A DNA stretch of 58,428 nucleotides, from positions 1-58,428 of the IMG/VR virus record IMGVR_UViG_3300037634_006328; one strand, given 5' to 3'. Positions 42,115-57,739 of this stretch are shown here, one piece after another. Below the pieces are notes generated by a model. The model did no database searches, was not told the DNA's origin, and worked only from the letters and a program-made list of their open reading frames with translations. The DNA is from a virus. Lineage: Duplodnaviria > Caudoviricetes. Every line of letters begins with the position of its first letter. Positions within the stretch are counted from its first letter, which is position 1. The position numbers were made by a program, and so were the translations under genes.

Positions 42115-42197
42115 GGCTTCGTGGTTGGAATTGGTATACACGAGACACTCAAAATGTCTTGCCTTCGGGCATGCGGGTTCGACTCCCGCCGAAGTCA
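42115..42197 (+). tRNA. tRNA-Leu(CAA)
   Basis: Acceptor GGCTTCG/CGAAGTC, anticodon arm AGACA-CTCAAAA-TGTCT, long variable arm, GGTTCGACTCC. Confidence 0.92.
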
Positions 42198-42213
42198 CTT
42201 TGAAAGAGGGGAA

Positions 42214-42822: not shown

Positions 42823-42977
42823 AGACAAGACAACTGACAACCCTTTGTTCTGACTGACTATGTACTAGAACATGTTGTGAAAGCCTTCAGAGAATGGCAA
42901 GTAGTATTCAGATCATTGACAACTTAAATAAGTTTTGGAACGTGTGTGAAGGGTGAGATCCGCTTGCCCTTCACTTT

Positions 42978-43046
42978 GCGGGTGCTTCAAGGTGAAGGCT
43001 TTGGTTGCCAATCAGAGATAGGTCAGTTCGATTCTGATCACCCGCT
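42978..43046 (+). tRNA. tRNA-Gly(GCC)
   Basis: GCGGGTG/CACCCGC acceptor, CTTC/GAAG D-stem, loop TTGCCAA, TTCGATT T-loop. Confidence 0.82.
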
Positions 43047-43063
43047 TTTCCGTTGGAGAGTGC

Positions 43064-43342
43064 TTGAATACTAGAAGGTTTAAATTCGAAGAAGGTGAAC
43101 TGATTGTCTTCAGAAAAAAGAAGACCGCGAAGACCATGGTTTCGCTGAACCGGATCGTGACTCACACCGTGCAGGATGGAACATTTCTAATTATTGCCAA
43201 GACTTTCCGCAGACCTCGGGGCTGGTATGGACCGCACACCCGACCAGAAAGGGAAAATTGGTATATCGTCTTCGATCCGAAGACGATAAAAAACCACACA
43301 TTCAGCGAAGAGATTCTTCGCTTTAGCGAGAAACCAAGATGA
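43064..43342 (+). CDS. small KOW/SH3-like hypothetical protein
   Basis: GGAGA RBS with TTG start; FEEGELIV. Confidence 0.5.
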   Translation: MNTRRFKFEEGELIVFRKKKTAKTMVSLNRIVTHTVQDGTFLIIAKTFRRPRGWYGPHTRPERENWYIVFDPKTIKNHTFSEEILRFSEKPR

Positions 43343-43956
43343 AATATCTATTTTTAGATTTTGATGGCGTGATATGCACCGCCAAATCATACAAACAAGG
43401 CGACAAACAATGGCAGAGAGACGGACGCCCTGCCGCATTAGGGCATAAACAAGGTGACAATTACGGCTTCGCCTCTGACTGTCGCGGCGACAGTGCTTAC
43501 AATTGCGGACCCTATCGAATCGACGCAGAGCTTGCAAAAGACGTTCAGAAGATTTGTGACACCCAAGACCAGATCGTAATCGTGCTTTCCACAACGTGGC
43601 GAAGACTTTATGAATTGAAACATCTTCGGATATGGCTCAATGAGAAAGGTATCACTGCACCAATCGTTGGCAGGACGGACCTGTTCTATTTGAAAGAGCT
43701 TGACGAATACGAAAGAGGTCATTTGATTCAGCGTTGGTGCCAGGACAATGGTGTTCCGATTGAGGATATCGTAATCCTTGATGATAATGAGATTCTTGAC
43801 CCTAACGATGAAAGGGGGAGATATCTCCCCATTGCTAGTCAGTTCGTTCATATCAAGAAAGGCTGGTCTTCTGGTGGGATAACCCAGAAGCACATCAATC
43901 AAGCAATTGGGATATTGGAAGGTAACCTATCGCAAGTTAACAAGCAGTTGACTTGA
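43339..43956 (+). CDS. HAD-family protein (Swiss-army-knife RNA-repair type)
   Basis: YLFLDFDGVI, IVLSTTWR, ERG..I..W, IVILDD. Confidence 0.8.
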   Translation: MKYLFLDFDGVICTAKSYKQGDKQWQRDGRPAALGHKQGDNYGFASDCRGDSAYNCGPYRIDAELAKDVQKICDTQDQIVIVLSTTWRRLYELKHLRIWLNEKGITAPIVGRTDLFYLKELDEYERGHLIQRWCQDNGVPIEDIVILDDNEILDPNDERGRYLPIASQFVHIKKGWSSGGITQKHINQAIGILEGNLSQVNKQLT

Positions 43957-44002
43957 CAGATCGCCTCAATCGGATACATTATATGTGTCGAAGGGGATAT
44001 AT

Positions 44003-44073
44003 TGGGATATAGTGTAACGGCAGCACAAGAGACTTTGAATCTCTCGGTTCAGGTTCAAATCCTGATATCCCTT
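44003..44073 (+). tRNA. tRNA-Gln(UUG)
   Basis: AGAGA-CTTTGAA-TCTCT anticodon arm; GGTTCAAATCC. Confidence 0.9.
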
Positions 44074-44081
44074 CTTTTGAG

Positions 44082-44282
44082 GTGCAGGTGAAAGAGCAGG
44101 AACTAACACTTAAGCAAGCCGAAATAATGCTTTCACAATTGAAGATGATGCTTGATCGTCACGAAACTCCCGAAGCTTGGCAGCAATACTATCTCGTGAA
44201 GCAGCTTGCCAGACTTCTTAAAGAAAAGAGCGAATCATGGTTTCAGAAATATGATCGAATCATGGGGGAGAAGAAGCGGTGA
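44082..44282 (+). CDS. hypothetical protein
   Basis: 66-aa ORF with GAGG RBS. Confidence 0.45.
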   Translation: MQVKEQELTLKQAEIMLSQLKMMLDRHETPEAWQQYYLVKQLARLLKEKSESWFQKYDRIMGEKKR

Positions 44283-44407
44283 TATGCGCCTGCGAAGACT
44301 ATGTATATGTAAACCGTTTGTAAAGCCACTTGACAACTGGCGTGAGCGTGATACATTATAGATGTGAAGAGACACATTTTTAAACAACTAGTACAAACAA
44401 TTATTAT

Positions 44408-44768
44408 GGGCCTGAAAGGATTCGACGGGGCAACTAGAAGGAATAGTGCAAGCCGCCAACTGTAACAAAAGGCGTAAACTTCGTTATAAACGCATAACTG
44501 CAAACAACAACAACAACTTCGAAATCGCTCTAGCGGCGTGATCAAGTTCATTCTCTCCTAGAGAGAATGCGGGGCTTCTAAAAGCCTTGTATCCAATTTC
44601 AGATATCAGCTAACCCTGTGAAAATAAAGGTTCAAGGTGCAACAGTCCAGTGAGCACCGGGAATGTACTGGATATTTTGTTAATTGAGGAAACAATTGAC
44701 CATGCTTGTGGATGACTTGAAATTTGAACGGTCTCGGACCCGGCTATCGTATGCCGGCAGGTCCACCA
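44408..44768 (+). ncRNA. ssrA: tmRNA (ssrA) with tag ANNNNNFEIALAA*
   Basis: 5' GGGCCTGAAAGGATTCGACGGGG; 3' CAGGTCCACCA; G3.U alanine identity pair; ATAACT|GCA resume codon at 44500; stop TGA 44539-44541. Confidence 0.93.
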
Positions 44769-44785
44769 TTTTATAAAGAGGGAAT

Positions 44786-45091
44786 ATGGAACAAGAAGCA
44801 ACAATGAAAATGATCGGTGCTGCGTTAACTTTGGCGATCTTTTCTTCGTCCTCGTTGTATCTCATGATGCGCGCACCCGACAAGACTCAATACTATGAGC
44901 CTACGATTCGAAAAGATTTTGTTTGTGGGCACGAGTGGCTTCCCGAACCCATTACAGAGCCGTCGGGCGGCGAGGTCGACTATCCGATCATAACCATCGG
45001 TCTTGACGGCGGGCTCCGTGTAGAGGTATCTCCGGGCGTTACAGTCGATTCTCTCACCGGACAGGTCGACTACAATTTTGAGCGTCGGTGA
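44786..45091 (+). CDS. membrane-anchored hypothetical protein
   Basis: N-terminal hydrophobic helix. Confidence 0.5.
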   Translation: MEQEATMKMIGAALTLAIFSSSSLYLMMRAPDKTQYYEPTIRKDFVCGHEWLPEPITEPSGGEVDYPIITIGLDGGLRVEVSPGVTVDSLTGQVDYNFERR

Positions 45092-45300
45092 ACATCGTGG
45101 GAAGGATCGCTAGTCGTTGGTATCGAACCGATCAAGGTGGGTTCAAAATCCAAGTCATTGATGACGGGAATTTGATTCACTTGAAGTTTGCCGATCAGTA
45201 TACATTCAGCATGGGTAAAAAACAATTCCTTGATTTCTCGGAAATGATTGCGTTTGCTGACAAGGTGGTGTTAAATGAGATCGAATTACCAGAAAGGTGA
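45088..45300 (+). CDS. hypothetical protein
   Basis: GTGA coupling. Confidence 0.45.
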   Translation: MNIVGRIASRWYRTDQGGFKIQVIDDGNLIHLKFADQYTFSMGKKQFLDFSEMIAFADKVVLNEIELPER

Positions 45301-45472
45301 GTTGTTGATTTATCGGCATGTATATAAACAAGATTTCAGGTTTTGTGTATACATAGGTCCTTCGCCTTCAAGCACGTCGCCATCCTCGATTCCACTTTTT
45401 CCTCATAGGGTTTTCTTTATTGATGTTCAGTTGGTTGGGCGCGCCATGGGTGTTGAGTTAACACAACCTTGA
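45275..45472 (+). CDS. small KOW/SH3-like hypothetical protein
   Basis: YQKGELLI; stop lies in a TTGAC box. Confidence 0.45.
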   Translation: MRSNYQKGELLIYRHVYKQDFRFCVYIGPSPSSTSPSSIPLFPHRVFFIDVQLVGRAMGVELTQP

Positions 45473-45521
45473 CTTGACAAACTCGGTCGGCAGGTTACAT
45501 TATAAGTGTAAGAAGAAATAC

Positions 45522-45593
45522 GCCGCTAAAGCATTTATGGTGATGCATTGGTTTTGTAATCCAAAGAATGGAGTTCAAGTCTTCATTGCGGCA
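45522..45593 (+). tRNA. tRNA-Thr(UGU)
   Basis: GCCGC acceptor, GCAT/ATGC D-stem, loop TTTGTAA, GTTCAAGTC; some mismatches. Confidence 0.8.
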
Positions 45594-45628
45594 TAGACGG
45601 CACATGAACCAGAGAGGGTGTCTAAATT

Positions 45629-45865
45629 ATGGTAAAGAGTTTGTACACCAAGGGCGATCTTGTTCAGCATTATCTTTTTCGTTCGTTCGGGATTGTGGTT
45701 GATAGTCGAAGGACTGCCAGTCTAAGACTGGAGTATAGGGAATATAAAGTATTCTGGCTAAACCCCTCTCCAGTGTTGAAAGAACAGACACAATTGCGGT
45801 GGATTGATAGAAGTGCTATTGAATTAGTAGAAATAGAAAATGGTCCGACGAGGGGGGAGGAGTGA
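45629..45865 (+). CDS. small KOW/SH3-like hypothetical protein
   Basis: YTKGDLVQ...FGIVV...YKVFW. Confidence 0.55.
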   Translation: MVKSLYTKGDLVQHYLFRSFGIVVDSRRTASLRLEYREYKVFWLNPSPVLKEQTQLRWIDRSAIELVEIENGPTRGEE

Positions 45866-46068
45866 CTGAAAAGGATATTGGCTCTTTATATACAATATCG
45901 GGCGATTTTGCGATCTTAACGGGCTTTCGATGGATAGAAGGTCTTGAAGGTGAGTTTGCAACGTTTTTTATGATTGCTCCTAAAATTAAGTGGTACTATG
46001 TTAATGGACTTATGGATTTCGCCGTGGCACGCTTTGACGGCTTTGACGACATCGAAAAGCTTGCTTGA
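45862..46068 (+). CDS. hypothetical protein
   Basis: Coupled ORF; stop lies in a TTGACA box. Confidence 0.5.
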   Translation: MTEKDIGSLYTISGDFAILTGFRWIEGLEGEFATFFMIAPKIKWYYVNGLMDFAVARFDGFDDIEKLA

Positions 46069-46108
46069 CAGCCCCCTGACTTGACAAAACGATTCGATAG
46101 GTTACATT

Positions 46109-46402
46109 ATGAAGAAAGAAGATATCAAGTTGGGAGTCCTTCTAGTATCCTATATAGCTTCAGATTCGCGCCCACAGTATTCGGTGGTGGTAAAAGAGAA
46201 TGTTGATATTCCAAAATGGTCAAGCCATGACTGTCAACATGTGAATTTATATTTCCTTCATTCTCGTATGACGAAAACTTGGCCGATAAAATCCATTTTG
46301 AAAGAAAATACTTCTTCTTTTAGGGTTTTTTATTTGCCCAGTGAAATAAATAGTTGCGGGCCTATAGCTCAATTGGCAGAGCACCGGACTCTTAATCCGT
46401 AG
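46109..46402 (+). CDS. hypothetical protein (3' end overlaps tRNA-Lys)
   Basis: IKLGVLLV motif; start abuts the -10 box, so it is uncertain. Confidence 0.35.
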   Translation: MKKEDIKLGVLLVSYIASDSRPQYSVVVKENVDIPKWSSHDCQHVNLYFLHSRMTKTWPIKSILKENTSSFRVFYLPSEINSCGPIAQLAEHRTLNP

Positions 46403-46430
46403 GTTCTAGGTTCGATTCCTAGTGGGCCCA
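46358..46430 (+). tRNA. tRNA-Lys(CUU)
   Basis: GGGCCTA/TGGGCCC, AGCTCAATTGGCAGAGC, loop CTCTTAA, GGTTCGATTCC. Confidence 0.95.
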
Positions 46431-46462
46431 CACTTTTTTCTTAACTTGGGAAGAGAGACAAA

Positions 46463-46720
46463 ATGTCTTACATAATTGAATACTACTTCGCAAAAGAAGG
46501 TCCAGGTCTGATCCCTGGTTGGTATCGAAGTTCATTGTTCGATACATACAAAGAGGCGAAAGAGGATTTCGAAAGATTGAGGGGTAATCCCTCGGTATAT
46601 AAATATAGGCTTCGCAATACGGAGACTAACAAGATTAGGGGGGAATTTGAACACCCAGATCTGAACAAGTCCAAGCCTGTACGAAAGAAGCGTAAATATA
46701 CGCGAAAAAAGAAGACTTGA
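46463..46720 (+). CDS. hypothetical protein with basic C-terminus
   Basis: RBS; stop lies in a TTGACA box. Confidence 0.55.
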   Translation: MSYIIEYYFAKEGPGLIPGWYRSSLFDTYKEAKEDFERLRGNPSVYKYRLRNTETNKIRGEFEHPDLNKSKPVRKKRKYTRKKKT

Positions 46721-46769
46721 CAACCCCTTGACTTGACAAAACACGTCATTAGGTTACATTATTATATAT

Positions 46770-46843
46770 GCGCGGTTAGCATAACTGAATAATGCCTTCG
46801 GCTTCTACCCGAAATCATGGGGGTTTGAATCCCTCACCGCGTA
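46770..46843 (+). tRNA. tRNA-Arg(UCU)
   Basis: GCGCGGT/ACCGCGT, TTCGG-CTTCTAC-CCGAA, GGTTTGAATCC. Confidence 0.88.
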
Positions 46844-46933
46844 CTTTAATCAGAAGGCGACTTGAAGGTTGATGTGTTTAAGCATCTTTTCAAGACCCGC
46901 GAATCTCATTTGAATTTACTGGAGGATCATACA

Positions 46934-47309
46934 ATGAAAGGGAAAGATTTTTTACGAGGCTCGTGAACGTGCATTAAATAACGATCACGGATTCCATATC
47001 GCGGCTATTCTATATCGGAGGGGTAAACCTGTGACAATCTCGGTTAACTCATGGAAGCAGAAACCAAAGTATTTCCGATACTATTCCAAGGCTACTCGCC
47101 CTGGGCGAGCATATTGCCAACACGCAGAAATGAGCGCACTGGAGTCTGCAAAGCCTGGAGACAAGATCGAAGTCATACGCTTCAGGTGTGATGGTTCAAT
47201 TGGTTGTGCCAAACCCTGTCCGCATTGCGAGAAGCGTTTGCGAAAGCTGAACATCCGTGTCAGGTATACAAATCATGATGGAGAGTGGGAGTGGTTGACA
47301 ACCTCTTGA
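46934..47309 (+). CDS. cytidine/dCMP deaminase-like protein, frameshifted near its start
   Basis: HAE and AKPCPHC zinc motifs. The deaminase-like N-terminus (YEARERAL..HIAAIL) is open upstream of 47031, but the GGAGG+ATG at 46934 is one base out of frame. Confidence 0.7.
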
Positions 47310-47610
47310 CAGAGTCTTGACTTGACTTTTCGGTCCAGCATGATACATTATATGTGTAGAAAAGAGGAAGAGAAAGAAATGTTCACAGTATTCGGTTCGG
47401 TAATGGGCGTAGTTGGTACCATTTTCTTTGCGTCTGAAGTCAAGGCAAAGCATGCCTGTCGTTGCGATAAAGGTGAATGATGGCTTGGGTTATTTATGTT
47501 TGCCTTGACTGTAAGCGTGAATATGATCGCGAATGGTCAGATAGCTGGAAACGTGATATGAAGAGTCACGGATTGTGCGGCAAGTGTGCAGATAAGAGGG
47601 GTTTGAGGTA

Positions 47611-47778
47611 ATGAAGCCATTGCGCGGCGATTTGTTTTACTCTGAATATTCAGTTTTTTATATCTATCTCGGGCAGACTCGTTCAAAAATGTTCTTTTGG
47701 CGAATCAACGGCCATGGTAGTAGTAAGTTTCGCAATTTCACTCACCACTATGTCAAAAGACACATGACCCACGCTTAA
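47611..47778 (+). CDS. 55-aa KOW-like hypothetical protein (not in ORF track)
   Basis: GAGG RBS; LRGDLFY..YIYLG. Confidence 0.4.
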   Translation: MKPLRGDLFYSEYSVFYIYLGQTRSKMFFWRINGHGSSKFRNFTHHYVKRHMTHA

Positions 47779-47873
47779 AACGAATTGTCAACTGATCGTC
47801 AAGCCGCTTGTCAAGGCGGGAGGATCGGTTACATTATAAGGGTAAGAACAAGAAAGAAAAAACTCTTACCACA

Positions 47874-47948
47874 GGGACTGTAGAGAATTGGTATATCGCT
47901 CCGACTTAAAATCGGAGGTCATTGTGGGTTCGAATCCCACCAGTCCCA
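47874..47948 (+). tRNA. tRNA-Leu(UAA) with short variable region
   Basis: GGGACTG/CAGTCCC, TCCGA-CTTAAAA-TCGGA, 7-nt variable region, GGTTCGAATCC. Confidence 0.88.
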
Positions 47949-47967
47949 CTTTAAAAGAAGGGAAACA

Positions 47968-48594
47968 ATGAGGATTTGCCTCATATCAGACACACACCAG
48001 ACACACCCAGACGTTGACAAATTCCCCGATGCAGACTTGCTTCTGCATTGCGGTGATGCCACGAAGAATGGGTGCGCGCAGGAATTCATTGCTTTCAACA
48101 AATGGCTGATCACTTTGAAGCAGAAGTTCCCGCATATCATTTTCACCCCTGGGAATCACGATCTTCTTTTCGAAGACAATGAAGGGTTTGCGCGCTCGCT
48201 TGTTCAAGATGCAGAGATTCTAATCGGTGAAACCACAATGTTCCAGGGTCTTCGGATTCATGGGTTCCCGTGGGTTCCAAAGTTCTACAATTGGGCGTTC
48301 ATGCAAACGTCGACGAGTCGAAAGGTCTCGACATCGGAGATTCCAGAGTGTGATGTTCTGATGACCCATGGCCCACCTTACGGCATTGGCGACGTTGCAA
48401 AGAACTTTTCGAATACCGGCTGCCCATGGCTTCTGCAAAGGGTTGAAAAGCTTCAGCCAAAGTTGCATGTATATGGTCATATCCATGAGTGCCACGGTCA
48501 AACGATTGAGATCGGTGGAACCAAGTTTATCAATGCGGCACAAATGGATCGACACCATCGACCATTGTTTGAGCCAATCGTTGTGGAGATCTGA
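47968..48594 (+). CDS. metallophosphoesterase (calcineurin-like)
   Basis: ISDTH, HCGD, PGNHD, THGPP, GHIHE. Confidence 0.92.
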   Translation: MRICLISDTHQTHPDVDKFPDADLLLHCGDATKNGCAQEFIAFNKWLITLKQKFPHIIFTPGNHDLLFEDNEGFARSLVQDAEILIGETTMFQGLRIHGFPWVPKFYNWAFMQTSTSRKVSTSEIPECDVLMTHGPPYGIGDVAKNFSNTGCPWLLQRVEKLQPKLHVYGHIHECHGQTIEIGGTKFINAAQMDRHHRPLFEPIVVEI

Positions 48595-48800
48595 TGAATG
48601 AAGATGAAATTGCATTCATCGTGTGTGTGGTGTTTGCCGTCACATTGGTGGTATGCTGCATGTCTGCGTATAACAGTGGCAGTAATAGTGCTTCCGCACT
48701 CGTGTGCTCGCAGTATTGTGATACCACCGGAGCAAAGTATGACTTTGTTGAAAACCGGTGCGTATGCATCACAATTACTGAAAAGTTTCAGGGAGAATAG
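48594..48800 (+). CDS. small membrane-anchored Cys-rich protein
   Basis: TM helix followed by C-x3-C...C-x-C. Confidence 0.45.
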   Translation: MNEDEIAFIVCVVFAVTLVVCCMSAYNSGSNSASALVCSQYCDTTGAKYDFVENRCVCITITEKFQGE

Positions 48801-49061
48801 AGAAGAAAACGCAAAGTCGCTTGACATTTTGTGACAGGCGGTTACATTATGTGCATGAAGAAAGAATACAAAATCTATGACAACATCGGGAATCTGATTG
48901 AAATCGGTTCAACCGTCGTTTTCGCGAATGATGGCGCTGTTGAAATAGATCGAGTTTCTGAATTCAGTGGGCGTTCATCGCTGTCAAGAATCGAGAAACA
49001 GAATTTGTGACCAATCGTATATTGGTCTACGAAATATAAAACACACAAAGGAAAAAGAAAT

Positions 49062-49262
49062 ATGTCTCAACCAAAAACAGTCCCTATTTGGGAGTTAGCA
49101 GTCACCGTCAAACAGGGGGAAGGACTTCATACTACGAAGTATCTTGTCGCTGCCGAAGATAAGAGAGAGATTCAGAGGTTTGTTCAAGCAAATCATGGCG
49201 AGCAGTCCCAATGGTCCGCCGATCCAAAGACTGTTTACGAACTTCGCCGCGAGCATCTTTGA
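49062..49262 (+). CDS. hypothetical protein
   Basis: AAGGA RBS. Confidence 0.5.
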   Translation: MSQPKTVPIWELAVTVKQGEGLHTTKYLVAAEDKREIQRFVQANHGEQSQWSADPKTVYELRREHL

Positions 49263-49511
49263 TGAGGTCTTAGCACTCTCTTGACTTGACAAAAGTGCTC
49301 GGCAGGTTACATTATAGGTAGAAAAAGGGGGATAGTTGAACGAAAAGCCGATTTATTTTGAGGATCTGTATCTGAACGAACCCGTATATGGTTTCGATTT
49401 GGACTATGACGTTCCTTGTTTTGATGAAGATGATGGTGAAGAGTATGAAGGATGTCCCTGGGATATCCCCGAAGACCTTCCGTTTTAAGAAGTTACGATC
49501 ACGTTAGCATA

Positions 49512-49700
49512 TTTGATTATTAATGGACCGGGGAGGAAAGGTATTATAGCCGTTCAAAGAACCTAATCGAACGGAATCGCATTCTTAATATATTTACGGA
49601 ATGCATATAGCCACCCACCTTGGCTAATAAAAAGGTGGAGTTGAAGGTGGTTCTAGGGTATATCGCTGAAAACAGATATGCCTTCCCGGTCTTAATCAAA
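49512..49700 (+). ncRNA. candidate structured ncRNA (about 190 nt, multi-hairpin, possible pseudoknots)
   Basis: Terminal stems TTTGATTA/TAATCAAA and GACCGGGGAGG/CCTTCCCGGTC enclose four hairpins. Confidence 0.55.
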
Positions 49701-49709
49701 GAAAAGACG

Positions 49710-49913
49710 ATGTCACTCCACCCAGCGCCATATGAAAAAGGCCAATTACTTAGGTTTAAACTACCTACGCATACAGATAGGAACATAACGCTGGTTGTAC
49801 TTGAAATAAATTTGTGGACACCAACCACTGCGACCATTCACGCATATTGTATCGAATCCGGCACCGCCGCAACATATCAGTTGCGACGAAGTAGCATCAT
49901 AGGTGAATCATGA
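49710..49913 (+). CDS. small KOW/SH3-like hypothetical protein
   Basis: YEKGQLLR; likely start ATG 49710, after the structured region. Confidence 0.45.
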   Translation: MSLHPAPYEKGQLLRFKLPTHTDRNITLVVLEINLWTPTTATIHAYCIESGTAATYQLRRSSIIGES

Positions 49914-50076
49914 TAATGAATAAGAAGAACACCCTTGACACCTCTGGTGCTCGGGGTATTGCTAGGCAGGAACACTTTGCCTCTGGTGGGAGTATTGCCG
50001 AATGGCGGGGCAAACACGTTGTACATAGTTCCGCAAAGAACTACAAGCGAAATCCAAAACATCGCACTAAACGAGA

Positions 50077-50295
50077 ATGGTAAAACCTCATTTGTTAATT
50101 GGCGAAGTAGTCCGGCTAAAGTATGTGGGTGCATCTGTTTATGGCATCGTGATTAGTTGTTCAGACATGAACGATTGCTCAAAAGTGCTAAGGGTATATT
50201 GGCTCCCCTCTAAGGAGTCCACCCCAGACCTAGAAGCATTGAAACGTCAGCGATTTATTGCTTCGAATTATGTTGAATTCTGTGACAAGGCTTGA
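50077..50295 (+). CDS. small KOW/SH3-like hypothetical protein
   Basis: LLIGEVVR...YGIVI...RVYW; stop lies in a TTGACA box. Confidence 0.5.
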   Translation: MVKPHLLIGEVVRLKYVGASVYGIVISCSDMNDCSKVLRVYWLPSKESTPDLEALKRQRFIASNYVEFCDKA

Positions 50296-50361
50296 CATTT
50301 TGTTGACTTGACAAAACCTCTCATCATGTTACATTATAGGTGTAAAAAGGAGAAAGAAAAC

Positions 50362-51075
50362 ATGTCTTACCCTACGTTATCCGCTCGCGGGCGCAAGCTC
50401 ATCGCTGAAGGTCTTCTCGCCCGATTGGATGCCGTCCGCACCAGCACCGCCGCCACGTCGCGGGATCGAGCCTTTCTTGATTCCCTCTTCGAAAACGCTA
50501 AGATTTGGGGTAACCTGTCCCCGAAGCAATACGCGGCGTTGGAAAGGGTTGAACAGCGTATTGAGACCCGTACTTTTGCACACAATGATCATGATGCTTG
50601 GATGACCGAGTGGGATAGCGAGAAGGCCGAACTATTCAGTCTTTTCCTTTCCTACGCATCCTCGACCAAACCTAGTGGTGCCATGAACCGCGCACCCATT
50701 GAATACTATGGTCGCTTCCTGTCTCTAGTGAAAGCTGACGAGAACTTCATTCCCACTCGTGGGCAATTCTCAAAGTATACAGGTAACCTCTACTTTCAGC
50801 GTGCTCTGGCGGAATACCGCCGATCACCTAAATTTGCTATTAACGGCGCTGTAACCTTTCGGTCAACGGCTAATTCTCGCTGCGATGCATATGCTGCATG
50901 TCGCCGCGCCCATGTGGGCACCAAGATTGTTGGGATGGTTACCGAGATTGATCCTTGCTTTCCACGCACCAGTGTCAAAGGTAGCAAAACCTATCGCGTG
51001 GTATTCCCGCAACTTATGAAGCAGTTTATTGTTGAAGAGCGTTGGCTTAAGCTTTCCTCTCGCAAAAAGTCTTGA
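50362..51075 (+). CDS. hypothetical early protein
   Basis: Promoter module plus AAGGAG RBS; FL.SL.......LS.KQ...L motif common in phage proteins. Confidence 0.65.
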   Translation: MSYPTLSARGRKLIAEGLLARLDAVRTSTAATSRDRAFLDSLFENAKIWGNLSPKQYAALERVEQRIETRTFAHNDHDAWMTEWDSEKAELFSLFLSYASSTKPSGAMNRAPIEYYGRFLSLVKADENFIPTRGQFSKYTGNLYFQRALAEYRRSPKFAINGAVTFRSTANSRCDAYAACRRAHVGTKIVGMVTEIDPCFPRTSVKGSKTYRVVFPQLMKQFIVEERWLKLSSRKKS

Positions 51076-51155
51076 CACTCTCTTAACAAAATAAGCCTCG
51101 ACAAAACCCGACAGCGTGATACATTATATGTGTAAGAACGAAAGAGGAAAAGAAC

Positions 51156-51314
51156 ATGGATGACTTCCACAGGGTTCAGGACATCGCGCACGGAGGCTAC
51201 AGGTGCCCTTGCTGCGGGCCTAAGCCTTCCGACCGACCCAAGGCTCGGCGTACTGCTCGACGCCGCCTGAAGGCTGTCACGCGCCGTATCATCCGTGATC
51301 AGATCGAGGACTGA
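51156..51314 (+). CDS. 52-aa basic CPCC protein (not in ORF track)
   Basis: MDDFHRVQDIAHGGYRCPCCGPKPSDRPKARRTARRRLK...; directly after a promoter module and GAGG RBS. Confidence 0.6.
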   Translation: MDDFHRVQDIAHGGYRCPCCGPKPSDRPKARRTARRRLKAVTRRIIRDQIED

Positions 51315-51318
51315 AGAA

Positions 51319-51573
51319 ATGAAGTTTGCTGCAACATTTGAAATCGATTTTGAGTTGGAAATGTCTGTTGCGACAACAACCTTTGTCGCCGAACAGATCA
51401 TGGGTTCCGAAACTTACCAGATTGGTACCGAACTCTTGGGTTTGGTCTCTGGTAATGGAATTAAGCTTGGCAGGCCCACCGCCGCTGACCAAAACATGAT
51501 TCTCCTTTGGGGAGTCCCTGGTTTCCGCGAATGGATGATGGATGCTGCGGCCCACATCGACCCACAAGGCTGA
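51319..51573 (+). CDS. hypothetical protein
   Basis: Follows the 52-aa ORF; GAGG RBS. Confidence 0.5.
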   Translation: MKFAATFEIDFELEMSVATTTFVAEQIMGSETYQIGTELLGLVSGNGIKLGRPTAADQNMILLWGVPGFREWMMDAAAHIDPQG

Positions 51574-51696
51574 CAACACTTGACAAACCCTTGACTTGAC
51601 AAATCACCCTGCGATGTTACATTATAAGGGTAAGAAACAAAAGGGCCGGTTGACCCATTCAACCACTTGATTAAAAACAGTCAAATGGAGGGCAAT

Positions 51697-51927
51697 ATGC
51701 CCCGCAAGAAGACCGAATCTACTTTCACCATTGGTCAGGCCGTTCGCCACCGGGTACCGAACTTCTGCGCATGCATCGCCGAAGATGAGAGCGTGTGGGC
51801 TAGTGGCACCGTGACCGCGCTCGGGACGCACGGAAAAGGTGGGAAGACCGTTACTGTCAAGTGGGCCGATGGTATTGAGCGCAAGTTCACCGCGAGCTTC
51901 GTGATTCCCGCTGTCGAAGCTAACTGA
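51697..51927 (+). CDS. small KOW/SH3-like hypothetical protein
   Basis: GGAGG RBS; FTIGQAVR...GTV...VTVKW. Confidence 0.6.
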   Translation: MPRKKTESTFTIGQAVRHRVPNFCACIAEDESVWASGTVTALGTHGKGGKTVTVKWADGIERKFTASFVIPAVEAN

Positions 51928-51934
51928 AGCCTCT

Positions 51935-52285
51935 AAAGCTAGGGCAAGAACAAATATGTCCCGAAAACACCCTCTGTCCGATTTCAGGTGAAACTCCTGC
52001 CCCAAATATCAATATGCTCACCACCAACATAGGGTCCGAGAAATTACTTTACAGCTCATTTTGAGTGAGTGCCTTCGTTATAAGCTTAGCGGCTAAGAGG
52101 GTTAACTGGATTATGTAAAAGTATCACCCGTGAGCGGGTCGCGCTAATGATGTTGGAAAATGTAGTACCAGACGTGAATGAACGTTGAGCGTAAACGTTG
52201 CATCAGACTTGGTGTTGAGGGTGAACGCGCCCTTCAACTTTAACTACACAGCCGCTGGCACACCGGTTAAAGTGTGCCACCTTTT
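51935..52285 (+). ncRNA. candidate large structured ncRNA (about 350 nt)
   Basis: No credible ORF; several 7-bp long-range helices and local hairpins; ends in a hairpin plus T run. Confidence 0.55.
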
Positions 52286-52386
52286 ATCGCGCCTGTCACT
52301 TTTCTTGACACTCTCTTAACGAAATAAGCCTCGACAAACCACGCCAGCGTGATACATTATATGTGTAAAAAGAAAAGGGGAAAAAC

Positions 52387-53046
52387 ATGAGTTGGAACGG
52401 GACCGTTCGATGCTCGCACTGTGGACAACGTGGACATAACAAACGCGGCTGCTCGGTGTTGAAGGAATGGGTTGCCGAACGGCGCATTACCCACGGCGAC
52501 AATGACTATTACGTTGCCAGCGCTGATCGCAAAGCCGCTAGTGCCAAAACAAGACAATGCTCGTTCTGCCGAGAAACCGGGCATAATCGCCGTGGCTGCA
52601 AGACTCTCAAGTCTGCGAAGATCGCTGCAAAGACTAGGCTTCACACAAATCGCCAATTCCTTTTAGGTTGGGTCACTGCGAACGCAACAAGTTTTCCTGG
52701 TGTTGGTAATATTGCCTTTTGCCCTTGGGCTAAGAAGCCATACGTGATCACTGGCATCGACTGGGGGGTATTTGATAATCTTGAGCGCGATGCCACTGAC
52801 ACAGATGTGCAAGCATATTTTGCGGATAACGACCTTCATTACTATCGGGAGATCTTCATCGGGAAAAGGATAGGAGACTTTCGTAGGACTGAAAGGTTCA
52901 GTGCAGTACAACTCGCTAGAACATCGAGCGATCTCAAGGGTTTTGTTCCCAAACCGCCAGCAGACCTGTTGACTGATGCCGCCTTGGCCACCATTGTTGA
53001 CGGACACTTTGCAAAACACGGAAGATGGTTCCATGGATATCGTTGA
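52387..53046 (+). CDS. double CCHC zinc-knuckle protein
   Basis: CSHCGQRGHNKRGC and CSFCRETGHNRRGC. Confidence 0.75.
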   Translation: MSWNGTVRCSHCGQRGHNKRGCSVLKEWVAERRITHGDNDYYVASADRKAASAKTRQCSFCRETGHNRRGCKTLKSAKIAAKTRLHTNRQFLLGWVTANATSFPGVGNIAFCPWAKKPYVITGIDWGVFDNLERDATDTDVQAYFADNDLHYYREIFIGKRIGDFRRTERFSAVQLARTSSDLKGFVPKPPADLLTDAALATIVDGHFAKHGRWFHGYR

Positions 53047-53229
53047 CGACCTCTTGACAAGATAATCCTCGACAAACGCTGGCAGCGTGATACATTATAT
53101 GTGTAGAAAAGATAGGAGTTCGATGCGCCCCCAGCCCGATTATGCCTTTTGGTTTTTGTGTATCGCTTGGGTATTCATATCCTTTTGGCTATATTATAGT
53201 CTGTTCCCCCTATTTGGCGGACCCTGATA

Positions 53230-53424
53230 ATGAAAGACAGTGAATCGTTCGAAGATAAAGTGGCTGATTACAGCGATTTCATGCTTCGTTCTTTTCTGAA
53301 TGATATGATGTTCGCTCCTATCGACGCCTCCGATCCAATCGAGTGTAAAGCAATTCAGCAAGCATTCGAAAACCTTGCCAATATTGATTGGTACGCATAT
53401 TTCAACGAAGAAGAGGGAAAATGA
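53230..53424 (+). CDS. hypothetical protein
   Basis: ATGA coupling to the next ORF. Confidence 0.45.
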   Translation: MKDSESFEDKVADYSDFMLRSFLNDMMFAPIDASDPIECKAIQQAFENLANIDWYAYFNEEEGK

Positions 53425-53666
53425 AAGTATTTACCGTAACCAAAGATGATGGAATCTTCCATCCAGTGATCGTTGCAGTCTATTCAGACTTCCACGAAGC
53501 CAATACTCATGTGAAGTTCTTGCGCTCAAAGCACAAGGTATCAAAGATCTCTGTCTCTGCGCAGCATTCTGTGAAGTTCAGTGTCGATACATACGATGTG
53601 TCGCCAAAGTTCGACAATGAAGACGCCCGAACGATTTGGGTTGATCCTCTCCGCGCCATGCGTTGA
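53421..53666 (+). CDS. hypothetical protein
   Basis: GAGGG RBS; stop lies in a TTGACA box. Confidence 0.5.
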   Translation: MKVFTVTKDDGIFHPVIVAVYSDFHEANTHVKFLRSKHKVSKISVSAQHSVKFSVDTYDVSPKFDNEDARTIWVDPLRAMR

Positions 53667-53883
53667 CAAACACTTGACAAGATAAGAGTCGACAAACGTT
53701 GTCAACGTGATACATTATATGTGTAGAAAGGAAAATAAAATGTCCACGCCTCGGTTGGCTAAATTCGAAATCAGTTTGATCATTTGTCTCATCATCTTAG
53801 GACTTTGGGTGACCGGTCTTGTGGCTTGGGGCGCGTGATGGAATTGGAAATTGGTTTTCTCAAAGAAGTAAAGGATTAAAACA

Positions 53884-54084
53884 ATGGCAATCTGGCAATT
53901 CATGCAGCGGTGCATGTTGGACCGCGTGCAAAACCCAGCCTACCGAAAGGGTCAGGCATTCATGAATCTCCTGAAGGAGTTTCGCCCAGACTTGGCCGAT
54001 GCAATGCATTCGACCGATCTTGATTGTTCCTGTGTGGATGAACGGTATGATGCTGCCCTCACCTATGTTCGAAAGAACTGGTGA
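53884..54084 (+). CDS. hypothetical protein
   Basis: R.GQAFMN.L...RPDLA motif typical of small phage proteins. Confidence 0.6.
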   Translation: MAIWQFMQRCMLDRVQNPAYRKGQAFMNLLKEFRPDLADAMHSTDLDCSCVDERYDAALTYVRKNW

Positions 54085-54182
54085 ACGGCAACGGAACGCT
54101 TGACAATCACTTGACAACTTAGTGGTCGACAAACCACGTCAGCGTGATACATTATATGTGTAAGAACGAAAAGGAAAACAAC

Positions 54183-54395
54183 ATGTCCGCCAACCTGCCG
54201 ACCGTGATTCTCTGGGCCGATGCCGTCCAAACCTTCGAAACCGACATGCTTCCGGCGCTTATCGAAGCCTATAGTGCTGACGATACCGTTGCATTCAGCG
54301 AGGCTTGGAACGACTGGACCGACTCCTTGTGCAAGGATGGTCAGATCTCTGATTGGCAGTATGCGAACTGGTCGCATCCCGCTTGCTGCGGTTGA
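54183..54395 (+). CDS. hypothetical protein
   Basis: EAWNDWTDSLCKDGQISDWQY.NW motif; stop lies in a TTGACA box. Confidence 0.65.
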   Translation: MSANLPTVILWADAVQTFETDMLPALIEAYSADDTVAFSEAWNDWTDSLCKDGQISDWQYANWSHPACCG

Positions 54396-54572
54396 CAAAC
54401 GCTTGACAACTTGGTGGTTGACAAACCACCCCAGCGTGATACATTATATATGCGAGACGGGGAAAGAAAAAGATGCCCCGCCCCTCGCAGACAAACACTT
54501 GACAACTTAGCACTTGCGTAACCGCCTCAATCGGTTACATTATAGATAGACGAAAAAGAAAAGGAACAAAAC

Positions 54573-55700
54573 ATGGCTGTCAACTTTACCGAATTCTCCG
54601 CTACCGCACCCTTCGTTGTGGATGCGCGATTCCCGGTTCTTATCCGTGGTCGACACGGAATCGGTAAATCTAGCGTTGTGTATCAGTATGCATCGACTGT
54701 CGGCCTTCCGGTTGTGGAACGACGTGCTTCCCAAATGACCGAAGGGGATCTCTTGGGAATCCCTGCAAAGGACGGAAAAGATGTCAACGGCACGATCGCC
54801 AGTGTCTTCGCCCCGTTTGAATGGCTTGTCAGGGCTTGTACTGAACCGGTGGTCCTCTTCCTTGACGAAGTGGACCGCGCCGTAACCGAGGTTCGACAGG
54901 GGCTTTTCGAGCTTTGTGACTCTCGCAAGATCGCAGGCTGGACCCTGCACCCTGATACCATCGTGTTCGCTGCGATCAACGGTGGCGAGCATGGCGCGCA
55001 ATACCAAGTCAATGCAATGGATCCGGCTGAACTCGATCGATACACCGTCTTTGACGTGGAACCGACCGTTGAGGAATGGTGTAGCTATGCCACTGACGCC
55101 TGCGACAGCGCAATCGTGGCGTTCATCCGGAACTTTCCAACACATTTGGAACACTTCGATGAATTCGAGCCGAACAAGGTTTACCCCTCTCGCCGTTCGT
55201 GGTGCCGATTCAATGATGCAATCGTGCGGCACGGCCTTCTGGCTGATGCCAAAGCGAACCGTGCAACGATTTCCCGCCTTGCAACTGCCTTTCTCGGCAT
55301 TGAGGCGTCCGTCAAATTCGTTGACTTCGTTGTCAATTACGATCGTCAGGTCTCTGCTGCGGATATCATCGAGAAGGGTCGTTTTGACCGTCTCGCCGAC
55401 TTTGAGCAGACTGACCATATGTCGGTTGTCGATGCGATCATTTCTGGTGGATACACTTCTTCGAAATTGGAAGGTTCGAACCTTCAGAACTTCGTTGATT
55501 ACCTTGTCAACTATCTTCCAGCCGAATGCGCTATGACTCTCTGGACTTCGGTTGTTGGTAATGCTGATACCCCACAGGACGTGATGACTCATAACATGGT
55601 CAACATTCAACGCAGCGTTGCATCGCCGATGAACGGTCAGCCTGGAATCACTTTTCAGAAGTGGTGCCTTGAGGTCATTCCGACCGACAACGATAGCTGA
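54573..55700 (+). CDS. AAA+ ATPase (MoxR/AAA_5-like)
   Basis: GRHGIGKS, LFLDEVDRA, MDPAELDRY, PSRRSW. Confidence 0.88.
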   Translation: MAVNFTEFSATAPFVVDARFPVLIRGRHGIGKSSVVYQYASTVGLPVVERRASQMTEGDLLGIPAKDGKDVNGTIASVFAPFEWLVRACTEPVVLFLDEVDRAVTEVRQGLFELCDSRKIAGWTLHPDTIVFAAINGGEHGAQYQVNAMDPAELDRYTVFDVEPTVEEWCSYATDACDSAIVAFIRNFPTHLEHFDEFEPNKVYPSRRSWCRFNDAIVRHGLLADAKANRATISRLATAFLGIEASVKFVDFVVNYDRQVSAADIIEKGRFDRLADFEQTDHMSVVDAIISGGYTSSKLEGSNLQNFVDYLVNYLPAECAMTLWTSVVGNADTPQDVMTHNMVNIQRSVASPMNGQPGITFQKWCLEVIPTDNDS

Positions 55701-55751
55701 TAGGGACGTCAATGGGTGCTGGCTTTCTGTCAGCCCCACACTTATCTTTTT

Positions 55752-55826
55752 GGGAATGTGGCCAAGTTGGTAAAGGCACCCGTCTTATAAGCAGGAGATA
55801 CGTGGGTTCAAACCCCACCATTCCCA
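55752..55826 (+). tRNA. tRNA-Ile(UAU)
   Basis: GGGAATG/CATTCCC, GCC..GGC D-stem, loop CTTATAA, GGTTCAAACCC; one mismatch in the anticodon stem. Confidence 0.82.
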
Positions 55827-55846
55827 CTCTAAAACAATGGTATGCA

Positions 55847-56062
55847 ATGAGAACCCCTGCACAGCGGTGCATTGAAGAATACGAGAAATATAAACACATT
55901 GTAATATCGGAAGGTCTTTATACTAACGCTAGTGGAGTTCAGTATCGAATTTCTGACGTTGACAACGAGAGAGGGACCGCAGTGACAACCTCATTGCTGA
56001 ACAACTATGAACTAAGGCGGACCCTACATTGGTGCCGGAAGAATCTAAAGAGAGTGGGATAG
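55847..56062 (+). CDS. hypothetical protein
   Basis: Start placed after the tRNA. Confidence 0.45.
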   Translation: MRTPAQRCIEEYEKYKHIVISEGLYTNASGVQYRISDVDNERGTAVTTSLLNNYELRRTLHWCRKNLKRVG

Positions 56063-56084
56063 AACATGCAATGCGAGACTACTT

Positions 56085-56312
56085 ATGAATGAAATGAAGG
56101 ATCCCGAAGATACGCCAGACATTGCCTCCGAAGTAATGCGAACGTTGGAAGATCAACAGAGAGAACTCCTTGAGATTCAGGCGGCATATGAAACTGCTGT
56201 CAAAGAGACTAGTTCAGAGTTGAACATGTTGCATATTCACGCTTGGCACGTTTGGGCGCTACTTCTTGAAACGCGCCTACCGCCGCAAAGTATCTATCCG
56301 GCTATGGCATAG
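56085..56312 (+). CDS. hypothetical protein
   Basis: Late-type motif at 56078. Confidence 0.45.
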   Translation: MNEMKDPEDTPDIASEVMRTLEDQQRELLEIQAAYETAVKETSSELNMLHIHAWHVWALLLETRLPPQSIYPAMA

Positions 56313-56319
56313 TGAAGTA

Positions 56320-56538
56320 ATGAAGTTGAAGTTTGATCAGATGGAGTTTGAAATAGGGGAATTAATAACCCTTAGATCTCATGATCCTGCAACCTTGCAT
56401 GGCATTGTTTTGAGTGAACCGTGGACGGACCATAATAATGAGGTCCGTGTCACGGTTTTTATCGTTGAAAAAAGGGAAGAATGGATACCATACATTCAAT
56501 CTATAAAGAAAATCAAGGGCTACGAAAATGAAGCTTGA
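56320..56538 (+). CDS. small KOW/SH3-like hypothetical protein
   Basis: FEIGELIT...HGIVL...VTVF. Confidence 0.5.
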   Translation: MKLKFDQMEFEIGELITLRSHDPATLHGIVLSEPWTDHNNEVRVTVFIVEKREEWIPYIQSIKKIKGYENEA

Positions 56539-56746
56539 TGTCGGACAATTGGTGACCACTACTTACAAACACAAGCCCCGCATTCGATATTTCATCGTTA
56601 TCGATCCGCTGGTGCCGCCCGACATCAACGCAGGAAGACCCCATTACATGACTCGCGTTTATTCAGTTTCAAGCTCCATTTTCTGTTATATCCCCGTTCA
56701 GTACGTTGTTCCTGTGCTTTCGTCCGCTTCGTCCACAGCCCTGTAA
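56528..56746 (+). CDS. small KOW/SH3-like hypothetical protein
   Basis: LDVGQLVT. Confidence 0.45.
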   Translation: MKLDVGQLVTTTYKHKPRIRYFIVIDPLVPPDINAGRPHYMTRVYSVSSSIFCYIPVQYVVPVLSSASSTAL

Positions 56747-56965
56747 GCGACCCGTGGCAGCCGCCCCTAGCTCGTCCATGCCAGGACACCCGCGAGCCGC
56801 TAGGACGCCAGCACGACCCCGTGACGGGCGCTACAGAGCCTGCCCCGCCTTCCCGAGACCTGACACCGACCACCAGCCCGAGACCAACCTGTAAAGAGGT
56901 TGTCAAGAGGGTTGACAAGTGCGGTCATCGTGATACATTATGAGTAGGAAAAGGGGAGAACTTTT

Positions 56966-57637
56966 ATGAAGTACAGCGCATCCAACGCCATGTCTCGCGC
57001 AGCCCTGATCGGCGAAATGCGTGCAGTGCTCGAAAAGGCAGGTTTCGCCAAACTTCCCGACGAAACTCGCCGAACCAGACATGGCCGGACCTTCCAGATC
57101 GAAGATCGATATGTCCGCAGCATTGACGAGAAGCGTCGTGTCATTGTGTACACGTCGATCGCAAACAACGACATTCGCAAGAAGGGTGCCGATGCCATTC
57201 GGATCCTTTCGCAGTTGAGTATTGAAGGGGACTTCGATCGCGTTGTTTGTCTGTCTAAGGAGTCCCGTGTCAATCGTGTGGGAAAGGTCAAGGCAATCGC
57301 TGGTCGTATGATCGACCGTATGCGGAATGTATGGGGCGAGACCATAAAGCTGGGGAGTTGCCCCCATTGTAATACCACCATGGCCCTTTCAAAGCAGGGT
57401 AAGGCGTTCTGCGCTATCCGCTGTTGGCTCCGAAAAGAAGTCCAGATGCCGAACATTGGTCAGATGATTGTTTCCGAATGGGGCGATGATCGTCCGGCAG
57501 AGTACGCAATTATTCAAGGCGTGCGAATCAGCAAAGATTTCACGAACTACGATATCAGAACATTCAAAGTTCGGGAGCAAATTCAAACCTCTTGGTATTC
57601 TCTCGCGACTCTCCATCGGATGCGCCGCATTGTGTAA
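56966..57637 (+). CDS. hypothetical protein with Zn ribbon and a KOW-like tail
   Basis: CPHC...CAIRC, then MPNIGQMIV; follows a promoter module and GGGGAG RBS. Confidence 0.6.
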   Translation: MKYSASNAMSRAALIGEMRAVLEKAGFAKLPDETRRTRHGRTFQIEDRYVRSIDEKRRVIVYTSIANNDIRKKGADAIRILSQLSIEGDFDRVVCLSKESRVNRVGKVKAIAGRMIDRMRNVWGETIKLGSCPHCNTTMALSKQGKAFCAIRCWLRKEVQMPNIGQMIVSEWGDDRPAEYAIIQGVRISKDFTNYDIRTFKVREQIQTSWYSLATLHRMRRIV

Positions 57638-57739
57638 ACGGTTTGTCAAGGCATGGCGATCGTCGTTGACAAACCGTGTCAGCGTGATACATTATATGTG
57701 TAAGAAGAAAAGAAAAAACCCTTTTTTAAGGAAAGCGAA

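Follow-up and report, generated by a model that had tools for sequence, protein, structure and literature searches.

Positions 52014 to 52285 of a 58,428-base viral contig (the window, meaning the whole stretch of DNA analysed here; CheckV estimates it at 32% of the genome) encode one RNA built of three modules: a conserved core, an exchangeable 3′ domain and a hairpin with a fixed loop. The core defines an RNA family with 84 distinct members, and two of its helices (P1 and P3) show covariation. Metatranscriptomes contain the RNA, and the family is associated with arrays of transfer RNA (tRNA) genes. The predicted layout of the core matches the published descriptor of ribozymes like that of hepatitis delta virus (HDV). 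From this anatomy we assign a probability of roughly 55% to the reading that the core is a variant HDV-like self-cleaving ribozyme which would free the RNA lying upstream of it.

The core module (52014–52156) consists of two near-invariant blocks around a variable insertion. Its parts are given below, with coordinates of the window and numbering relative to G+1, the first letter after the predicted cut between 52015 and 52016.

52014–52015, + strand: A at −2 and U at −1, both conserved (in 83 and 80 of the 84 members, respectively)
52016–52021, + strand: 5′ strand of P1, GCUCAC, starting at G+1; pairs with 52130–52135, with 97.4% of the alignment cells paired and two of the six pairs changed on both sides
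52024–52030, + strand: putative 5′ strand of P2, CCAACAU; complementary to 52150–52156 at seven of seven positions, and invariant among the members apart from one G-U; letters fixed by the collection scans
52032–52034, + strand: 5′ strand of P3, GGG; all three pairs covary with 52127–52129
52035–52040, + strand: start of loop 3, UCCGAG (U in 82, C in 84 and C in 82 of the 84 members; UCCGAG as a whole in 50)
within 52035–52040, + strand: C52036 and C52037, the proposed 5′ strand of P1.1
52041–52126, + strand: variable loop 3 insertion, of a type particular to the window
52127–52129, + strand: 3′ strand of P3, CCC, covarying with GGG
52130–52135, + strand: 3′ strand of P1, GUGAGC, abutting P3; pairing counts as for the 5′ strand
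52136–52137, + strand: GG, proposed to pair with C52036 and C52037 as the 3′ strand of P1.1; both positions are G in all 84 members, with C-G in 84 and 82 of the 84 cells
52138–52143, + strand: linker of six letters with the palindrome CGCG, at the place of P4 in HDV
52144–52149, + strand: junction CUAAUG, with C52144 as candidate catalytic cytosine (CUAAUG in 83 members, CGAAUG in one; the C was fixed by a scan pattern in most of them)
52150–52156, + strand: putative 3′ strand of P2, AUGUUGG, complementary to 52024–52030

The region 52016–52156 is predicted to fold as a nested double pseudoknot of P1, P2, P3 and P1.1, where P2 and P1.1 are proposed from complementarity. The strand order P1-P2-P3-P3′-P1′-P1.1′-P2′ was read from the 84 aligned members. 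The 5′ strand of P2 sits in the bulge between P1 and P3 with its complement at 52150–52156 and, since P2 crosses P1, the fold would be a pseudoknot. In alignment A3, 98.3% of the cells are paired compared with 95.1% in shuffles, and double-sided changes were counted in 37 cells compared with 5.3 in shuffles, a value that none of 500 shuffles reached. Sliding the partner columns by 1–3 positions lowered the pairing to 28–52%. P3 changes from GC to CG in 9–12 members and to AU in five, and from the insertion types involved this covariation represents at least five separate events. In P1, the compensated variants GUUUCAC/GUGAAAC and GUUUCGU/ACGAAAC gain one base pair (7 bp, five members); these five members are scored as mismatched by the gapped alignment.

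The first conserved block could also be read as a tiny open reading frame (ORF) or leader peptide starting from the ATG at 52014 (MLTTNIGSE...), whose coding would then account for the conservation. The reading ATG CTC ACC ACC AAC ATA GGG is common among the members, and a divergent member keeps Ile and Gly by changes that look synonymous. However, the start is AAG in four, GTG in one and ATA in one of the 84 members, there is no ribosome site, and six copies inspected by eye all run into a stop after 9 to 25 codons. Moreover, third codon positions are equally invariant, and the 3′ block is equally conserved without any frame. A coding origin is regarded as most improbable.

Two parts of the core vary. 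The spacing between the strands of P3 ranges from 17 nucleotides (nt) in L183:3234-3317 up to about 190 nt elsewhere, and in the window the fold of 52038–52126, which spans the insertion, is not above chance (z = −0.07). In the linker, the adjacent letters 52141 and 52142 (columns 211 and 215 of alignment A3) switch together (GC 38, AU 38, UA 5, CG 1), so that the linker reads CGCG or CAUG. Both linker alleles occur with the same insertion types, often one of each per contig, and recombination is unable to separate two adjacent letters. A base pair between 52141 and 52142 was rejected, as adjacent letters are unable to pair within one molecule. The switch could reflect a dimer contact, a vestige of P4 or simply two linked alleles; one member (L235) has a real small hairpin in the linker, at the place of P4.

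HDV-like ribozymes cut 5′ of G1, which leaves a 2′,3′-cyclic phosphate and a 5′-OH, and they lose this activity when the catalytic C is replaced by U. The HDV-like descriptor comprises a G1 paired to a pyrimidine (Y), a P1 and a P2 of 7 bp each, two C-G pairs in P1.1 made by C's of loop 3 and two G's directly after P1, a loop 3 that opens with U-C-C and contains U19, C23 and G24, and C-R-R-A before P2 (PMC6326823). Active minimal HDV-like ribozymes without P4 are located beside phage tRNA genes and cleave in vitro (PMC10879173), and the structure of the HDV ribozyme of an Ackermannviridae phage has been solved (PMC13635239). The predicted core shares with these ribozymes the nested double-pseudoknot strand order P1-P2-P3-P3′-P1′-P1.1′-J4/2-P2′ and, as in the minimal forms, has no P4. 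G+1 is present in 83 of the 84 members and is paired to C. P1 has 6 bp (7 bp in the five members above), P2 would have 7 bp, P3 3 bp and P1.1 2 bp; no letters stand between P3 and P1, nor between P1 and GG, and P3 is followed by UCC (82, 84 and 82 of 84). In loop 3, U is found in 82 members and G at the sixth place in 66. Before P2, the C is invariant (84 of 84) and opens C-U-A-A in 83 members and C-G-A-A in one, six letters before P2.

Expression of the RNA was investigated in public sequencing runs. Twenty runs hold part of 51600–52400, six of them marine metatranscriptomes, and the contigs of four of these were compared with the window. They fall only on 52024–52285. The contigs covering the core are at least 96% alike to the window (five other letters in 133–135) at depths of 10 to 81, and thus derive from close relatives. 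Two contigs start at 52024 (X17) and 52026 (X15), 8–10 nt after the predicted cut, one has an end at 52034 (X16), and there is no loose end on that side. This gives a weak hint that the 5′ end of the RNA lies just upstream of 52024, at the predicted cut. A contig of 377 nt spans the core into another 3′ domain, which indicates that core and cargo stay joined. Judging from loose contig ends, these runs contain two or more further insertion types of the family. No RNA contig of the four runs covers 51600–52004 or 52302–52400; no weight was given to this, since the contigs come from relatives with possibly other neighbours.

Several observations weigh against self-cleavage. Conservation extends over positions −4 to −1 (with A at 74%, U at 71%, A at 99% and U at 95%), which HDV-like catalysis would not need. 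P2 is invariant save one G-U, and neither P2 nor P1.1 covaries: the CC and GG of P1.1 stand at the right places in 82–84 of the 84 members and never vary. The count for P2 is biased because the scan patterns fixed both of its strands, and in about 75 of the 84 members the letters of P2 and P1.1 were fixed in this way; five complete copies on the same loci that were free of the patterns all keep P2, one of them with G-U. Within the junction corresponding to J4/2, the candidate catalytic C is followed by U and not by a purine, and an extra UG precedes P2. Loop 3, of about 7 nt in HDV-like ribozymes, carries in the family an insertion of 14 to about 190 nt near the would-be active site, and a limited literature search, which included passages of three papers, found no published HDV-like ribozyme with an insertion there. 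The place of C23 is taken by A in 68 of the 84 members, the closing pair of P1 is G-C where G-U is usual (the descriptor allows Y), and in sequence the core varies far less than is usual for HDV-like ribozymes. Some of the match may stem from the recent spread of one cassette. No HDV-type match was obtained in Rfam at an expectation value (E) up to 10, either with window positions 51500–52700 or with the minimal member of 84 nt. Finally, the metatranscriptome contigs give no strand, exact ends or expression level, and the end of the RNA is not exactly placed by them. Since fitting and non-fitting features stand side by side, the core is presented as a candidate variant that would work like an HDV-like ribozyme, and not as a proven member of that class.

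The core is followed by two further modules.

52157–52250, + strand: exchangeable 3′ domain, a three-way junction with a stem of 52161–52166 with 52243–52248; this type is common to six sequences
52252–52285, + strand: hairpin module, made of CCGC, a stem of 7–8 bp, the fixed loop CGGUUAAA and a U tract; found in 84 viral stretches, with a terminator-like score

At least 20 other, unrelated types of 3′ domain were found in the family, and four members have none. The domain of the window (52161–52248) occurs with 100% identity between different flanks in contigs of all four metatranscriptome runs, and from this it looks like an independent RNA module. Its end, ACUUUAAC (52237–52244), is complementary to GUUAAAGU in the hairpin loop (52266–52273), and CUUUAAC is kept in the other five sequences of this domain type; the two strands may form an extra pseudoknot. 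T-arm-like hairpins (GGUUCGA) are present in several cargo domains (L188:2560-2620; also L186, L153, L082 and L183), and one 3′ domain stands at the Rfam gathering score for tRNA (29.4 bits versus 29). ARAGORN called no tRNA inside any 3′ domain.

The features of these domains bear on a second explanation, namely that the RNA is stable and non-catalytic. The double pseudoknot would then be a scaffold or protective 5′ cap for the variable 3′ domain, and its 5′ end would come from a nuclease of host or phage, for instance RNase P, RNase E or a similar enzyme, reading the conserved AUAU ahead of it. Such an RNA accounts for the conservation of positions −4 to −1, for the RNA contigs in which core and 3′ domain remain joined and for the lack of matches to HDV models, and it agrees with the variety of at least 20 exchangeable 3′ domains, some with T-arm-like hairpins and one at the Rfam tRNA threshold (29.4 bits). 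It leaves a coincidence in the HDV-specific details, which are a P3 of 3 bp followed by UCC, GG directly after P1, and C-N-A-A before a P2 of 7 bp; the four members without 3′ domain also have nothing to scaffold. We regard a non-catalytic RNA as a possible, though not a probable, explanation.

The hairpin is a conserved element of its own. The middle pair of its stem (pair 5) covaries (CG 120, GC 42, UA 14), and the module mostly occurs without the core. Its 84 viral stretches are located on contigs of 4 to 395 kb (L058–L149), after stop codons, before tRNA genes or before the core. The pattern matched six stretches in prokaryote genomes, compared with a chance expectation of about nine by our own estimate. 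Just 5′ of the hairpin, several unrelated contigs (for example L084:13361-13512) carry a small ORF that combines a lipoprotein-like signal with an acidic tail, and its end, ...GATACAGCAGCAGAGTAA, is common to L059, L081, L096, L100 and L109.

The distribution of the modules would also suit a mobile regulatory cassette that acts at the DNA level, with the conserved blocks as recombination points and terminator, and with termination as the only role of the RNA. The family is a mosaic, in which one insertion type can be found with both linker alleles and with varying 3′ domains. The hairpin mostly stands apart from the core in its 84 viral stretches, and the window itself is full of repeated promoter cassettes. 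In contrast, selection on DNA does not predict the compensatory changes that keep P1 and P3 paired. The element is also strictly on one strand relative to the tRNA genes, and the RNA is abundant in metatranscriptomes. A cassette acting only as DNA is therefore considered unlikely. PeSL promoter and stem-loop cassettes flank small genes in T4-type phages and are short conserved repeats bounding shuffled modules. As far as their general description goes, they resemble the promoter repeats of the window and the fixed-loop hairpin. In contrast to them, the hairpin of the family has a fixed loop of 8 nt across very different phages and is coupled to a pseudoknot core that covaries at the RNA level.

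Members of the family lie among tRNA genes. The 71 member loci (451 kb) contain 281 genes of tRNA or transfer-messenger RNA (tmRNA), 67 of the 84 members have a tRNA on the same strand within 1 kb, and in 42 members a tRNA starts at most 400 nt downstream. Conservation begins about four letters before G+1, and the sequence farther upstream is unrelated among members; the end of the conserved hairpin stands 4–6 nt before G+1 in 28 of the 84 members and the end of a tRNA in six. The copy of the window is peripheral in this respect, its closest tRNA genes on the same strand lying 4.07 kb upstream and 3.59 kb downstream. A sequence-only reading of the window made before this analysis had pointed to large structured RNAs near phage tRNA clusters, and the wider family is located in phage tRNA arrays.

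The ribozymes described beside phage tRNA genes as theta ribozymes (PMC10879173) are the closest comparison for this setting. They also occur on contigs of tailed phages, on the same strand as and among tRNA genes, but were found in gut samples whereas the present family is marine. Theta ribozymes cleave at most 5 nt from the 3′ end of a tRNA by the published criterion (PMC10879173), and in the family the predicted cut lies that close in five of the 84 members (gaps of 4–5 nt), with a sixth at 6 nt. While theta ribozymes lie within 1 nt of the tRNA, only these six members stand directly after one, at 4–6 nt. In addition, the core of the family, unlike theta and other HDV-like ribozymes, has an exchangeable domain and then a conserved hairpin behind it. 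The theta search motif, as far as it is described in PMC10879173, would miss the family because of its fixed loop length. No such marine phage family was met in the literature on HDV-like and phage-tRNA ribozymes, where the supplements with hits and motifs of PMC10879173 were not covered.

The family was collected by stepwise searches. GenBank phages gave no DNA match to the gap between the flanking genes at E 1e-5 and a single match of 30 nt at E 0.3. Searches of viral contigs with single proteins (from the two flanking genes and an AAA ATPase) did not reveal close relatives, and the ATPase gave distant matches only in GenBank phages. Twelve relatives of the zinc-knuckle protein encoded downstream were aligned, by which 56 viral loci were retrieved. 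Against these loci, nhmmer found nothing for the gap and blastn three matches at E = 4.3, while the whole records of 50 of the 56 gave three matches of 33–36 nt with 88–89% identity, all at the terminal hairpin. A degenerate hairpin pattern then matched the 84 viral stretches mentioned above, where about one is expected by chance (own estimate), and in two of these hairpin loci a 27-mer of the window starting at 52014 stands after the hairpin. With a pattern for the second conserved block, five core copies were found on four viral contigs and a profile search added one. A scan of metagenome contigs gave 112 core stretches, with about 11 of 95 distinct matches lacking the family signature. Removal of duplicates left 84 distinct cores on 71 loci, of which 59 have a single copy, 11 two copies and one three copies.

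Other searches define the limits of the family. The anchor CACCCGTGAGCGGGTC alone was abandoned, as 43 of its 47 viral stretches were chance matches in GC-rich phages. Covariance model R1 found no core in the 84 hairpin loci (718,701 nt, E up to 1) and no divergent core member in the 50 related viral records. The copy of L251 has a changed 3′ strand of P2, whose partner strand is removed by the contig end. Among prokaryotes (one genome for each of 185,579 species) no family member was detected, and all four pattern matches lacked the signature. To date, only uncultured phage contigs and marine contigs have yielded the RNA family. At Rfam gathering scores, 16 member loci gave only 76 tRNA matches and one group I intron, the latter (L150:1899-2091, 57.1 bits) in the tRNA region of a phage contig that bears the RNA.

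The gap in which the RNA lies is bounded by the stop codon of a 76-aa ORF (51927) and by the terminator-like hairpin at 52256–52285, behind which a promoter cassette and a gene for a double zinc-knuckle protein follow. The neighbouring features are the following.

51592–51649, + strand: promoter cassette, one of 9–10 repeat copies of a sigma-70-like module in 49285–57719
51697–51927, + strand: 76-aa ORF with an ATG after GGAGGG, upstream context outside the RNA
51928–52013, + strand: trailer of the upstream gene, outside the RNA family; unconserved, with no match in related loci
52303–53046, + strand: promoter cassette that follows, with the double zinc-knuckle gene, adjacent to the RNA but not supported as its partner

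The sequence-only reading had proposed that the gap encodes one ornate RNA of about 350 nt. It was right in that a structured, pseudoknotted non-coding RNA without Rfam family is present, but this is not a single large RNA of the GOLLD or ROOL type. The three-module chain begins at 52014 only, and the first 80 nt of the gap are without relatives. The absence of a credible ORF was verified, with 10, 9 and 4 stops in the three + frames and listed ORFs of 36–44 aa without ribosome site. All of the complementary strings that had been singled out are in place (ACCCTCT at 51969 with AGAGGGT at 52096, CCAACAT at 52024 with ATGTTGG at 52150, and AGCGGCT at 52088 with AGCCGCT at 52250), as are the four local hairpins and the CCTTTT after 52279. 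From the three long-range pairs, CCAACAT/ATGTTGG corresponds to P2 and would cross P1, whereas the two others are unsupported: ACCCTCT falls outside the conserved RNA and AGCGGCT lies in the variable insertion. With regard to the local hairpins, AACGTT/AACGTT and GTTGAGGG/CCCTTCAAC are arms of the 3′ domain common to six sequences, and the terminal hairpin is conserved. ACCCG-TGAG-CGGGT is not a conserved fold; its arms belong to P3/P1 and P1/P1.1, and it is impossible once P3 reads GCC/GGC, as it does for example in the second L097 copy.

The statistics of the gap alone are ordinary. Perfect 7-mer complement pairs number eight (overlapping windows counted) versus 3.7 ± 2.5, which is not above chance, as 7.3% of 2000 mononucleotide shuffles reach eight. 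The minimum free energy of 51928–52290 gives z values of +0.24 (+ strand) and −0.36 (− strand), and that of the minimal member also has z near 0; such thermodynamic folding scores are uninformative for pseudoknots. A consensus scan flagged only the terminator-like hairpin 52256–52279. Folding energy at chance level and stops in all frames would agree with a decayed gene, a possibility that the sequence-only reading had named, or with plain 3′ untranslated sequence in which hairpins arose by chance. For 52014–52285 this is ruled out by 84 distinct relatives with block-wise conservation and covariation, together with the expression of the RNA, and we see next to no likelihood in it. For 51928–52013, in contrast, a plain decayed gene or 3′ untranslated stretch is the best reading.

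GOLLD and ROOL are single large conserved folds of about 500–800 nt, often located near tRNA genes in phages and prophages. The present family shares with them that it is a non-coding RNA near phage tRNA genes, but it consists of a conserved core of about 70 nt with swappable modules. An RNA of their type, some 350 nt long and working with the zinc-knuckle protein, finds an argument in this location and in the real pseudoknot. The comparison with Rfam suggested for the gap was carried out and gave no match at gathering scores or at E up to 10, the GOLLD and ROOL models included. Together with the unconserved first 80 nt and with the conserved part being a core plus modules, this leaves an RNA of that type highly improbable, the more so as protein and RNA do not co-occur. 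The protein (52387–53046) has two CCHC zinc knuckles and the invariant N-terminus MSWNGTVRCS.C...GHN, with 55 relatives in a large collection of (metagenome) proteins besides the 56 viral loci. Its proposed partnership with the RNA was not upheld. The RNA core was found in none of 50 viral records with a relative of the protein, including 11 records estimated to be at least 90% complete, and the protein was found in one of five viral records that bear the RNA, 6.3 kb from it. In the window, the zinc-knuckle gene has its own promoter cassette. Pfam gave only a sub-threshold zinc-finger match for the protein, tblastn against GenBank phages gave nothing, and two tandem zinc-knuckle paralogues were observed in the record behind L084.

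The window contains genes for the alpha subunit of DNA polymerase III (Pol III), DnaB, RecA, ribonucleotide reductase and a GroEL-type chaperonin, and all of its long genes are on the + strand. A tmRNA gene and seven tRNA genes are located at 42115–55827, the phage tmRNA at 44408–44768 (76.3 bits) standing among the tRNA genes. The region 49285–57719 is a run of small genes, each with its own repeated sigma-70-like promoter cassette upstream. The cassette has 50–82 nt, occurs in at least 10 copies in this region and consists of two or three TTGACA-like boxes followed by GTGATACATTATATGTGTA; promoter-like sites number 19 versus 5.0 expected, and the 19-mer of the cassette has no exact match among other viral contigs. 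The 76-aa ORF upstream of the RNA belongs to no Pfam family and has no relatives among viral contigs. Phage T4 produces stable RNAs from its tRNA cluster (species 1 and 2), which are small non-tRNA RNAs co-transcribed with tRNAs and cut from a common precursor. They resemble the family by this general description, and they are not known to be pseudoknotted ribozymes.

Assuming that the core is an HDV-like ribozyme, the following course can be proposed. The promoter cassette at 51592–51649 probably drives the upstream small gene and, by extension, the RNA behind it. From there, transcription would continue across the 76-aa gene and then the RNA until the hairpin with its U tract ends it at 52285; the consensus scan revealed no terminator between promoter and hairpin. 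The core would fold and then cut its own transcript between U52015 and G52016, C52144 acting as general acid. The cut would give the RNA upstream of it a defined 3′ end and set it free; this is a messenger RNA (mRNA) in the window and, in relatives, a tRNA with a trailer of 4–6 nt or an RNA whose end is the conserved hairpin. The ribozyme would remain attached to its 3′ cargo domain and to the closing hairpin, which would end or protect the RNA. Cleavage, its site and its purpose are here deduced from anatomy and context.

More tentatively, core, exchangeable 3′ domain and fixed-loop hairpin together might represent a system of mobile RNA cassettes of marine phages, which we consider rather doubtful at present. 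In such a system, more than 20 kinds of small cargo RNA, in part tRNA-like, would be released from the transcripts of tRNA arrays by a self-cutting scaffold, and the loop would be read by a phage or host factor. The cargos might act as decoys or as helpers in the competition for host tRNA.

The report of HDV-like ribozymes next to phage tRNA genes dates only from 2024, and almost all of them came from gut phages. If the core does cleave, the same solution would be widespread among marine phages. Its fold would accommodate both a large loop 3 insertion and the loss of P4, which would widen the search motifs and inform on the needs of the active site, and self-cleavage would be tied to modular small RNAs that are abundant in ocean metatranscriptomes. 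The family also offers a compact natural variant of 70–84 nt. Even without cleavage, it stands as a new and well-supported family of RNAs, of which there are at least 84 sequence variants.

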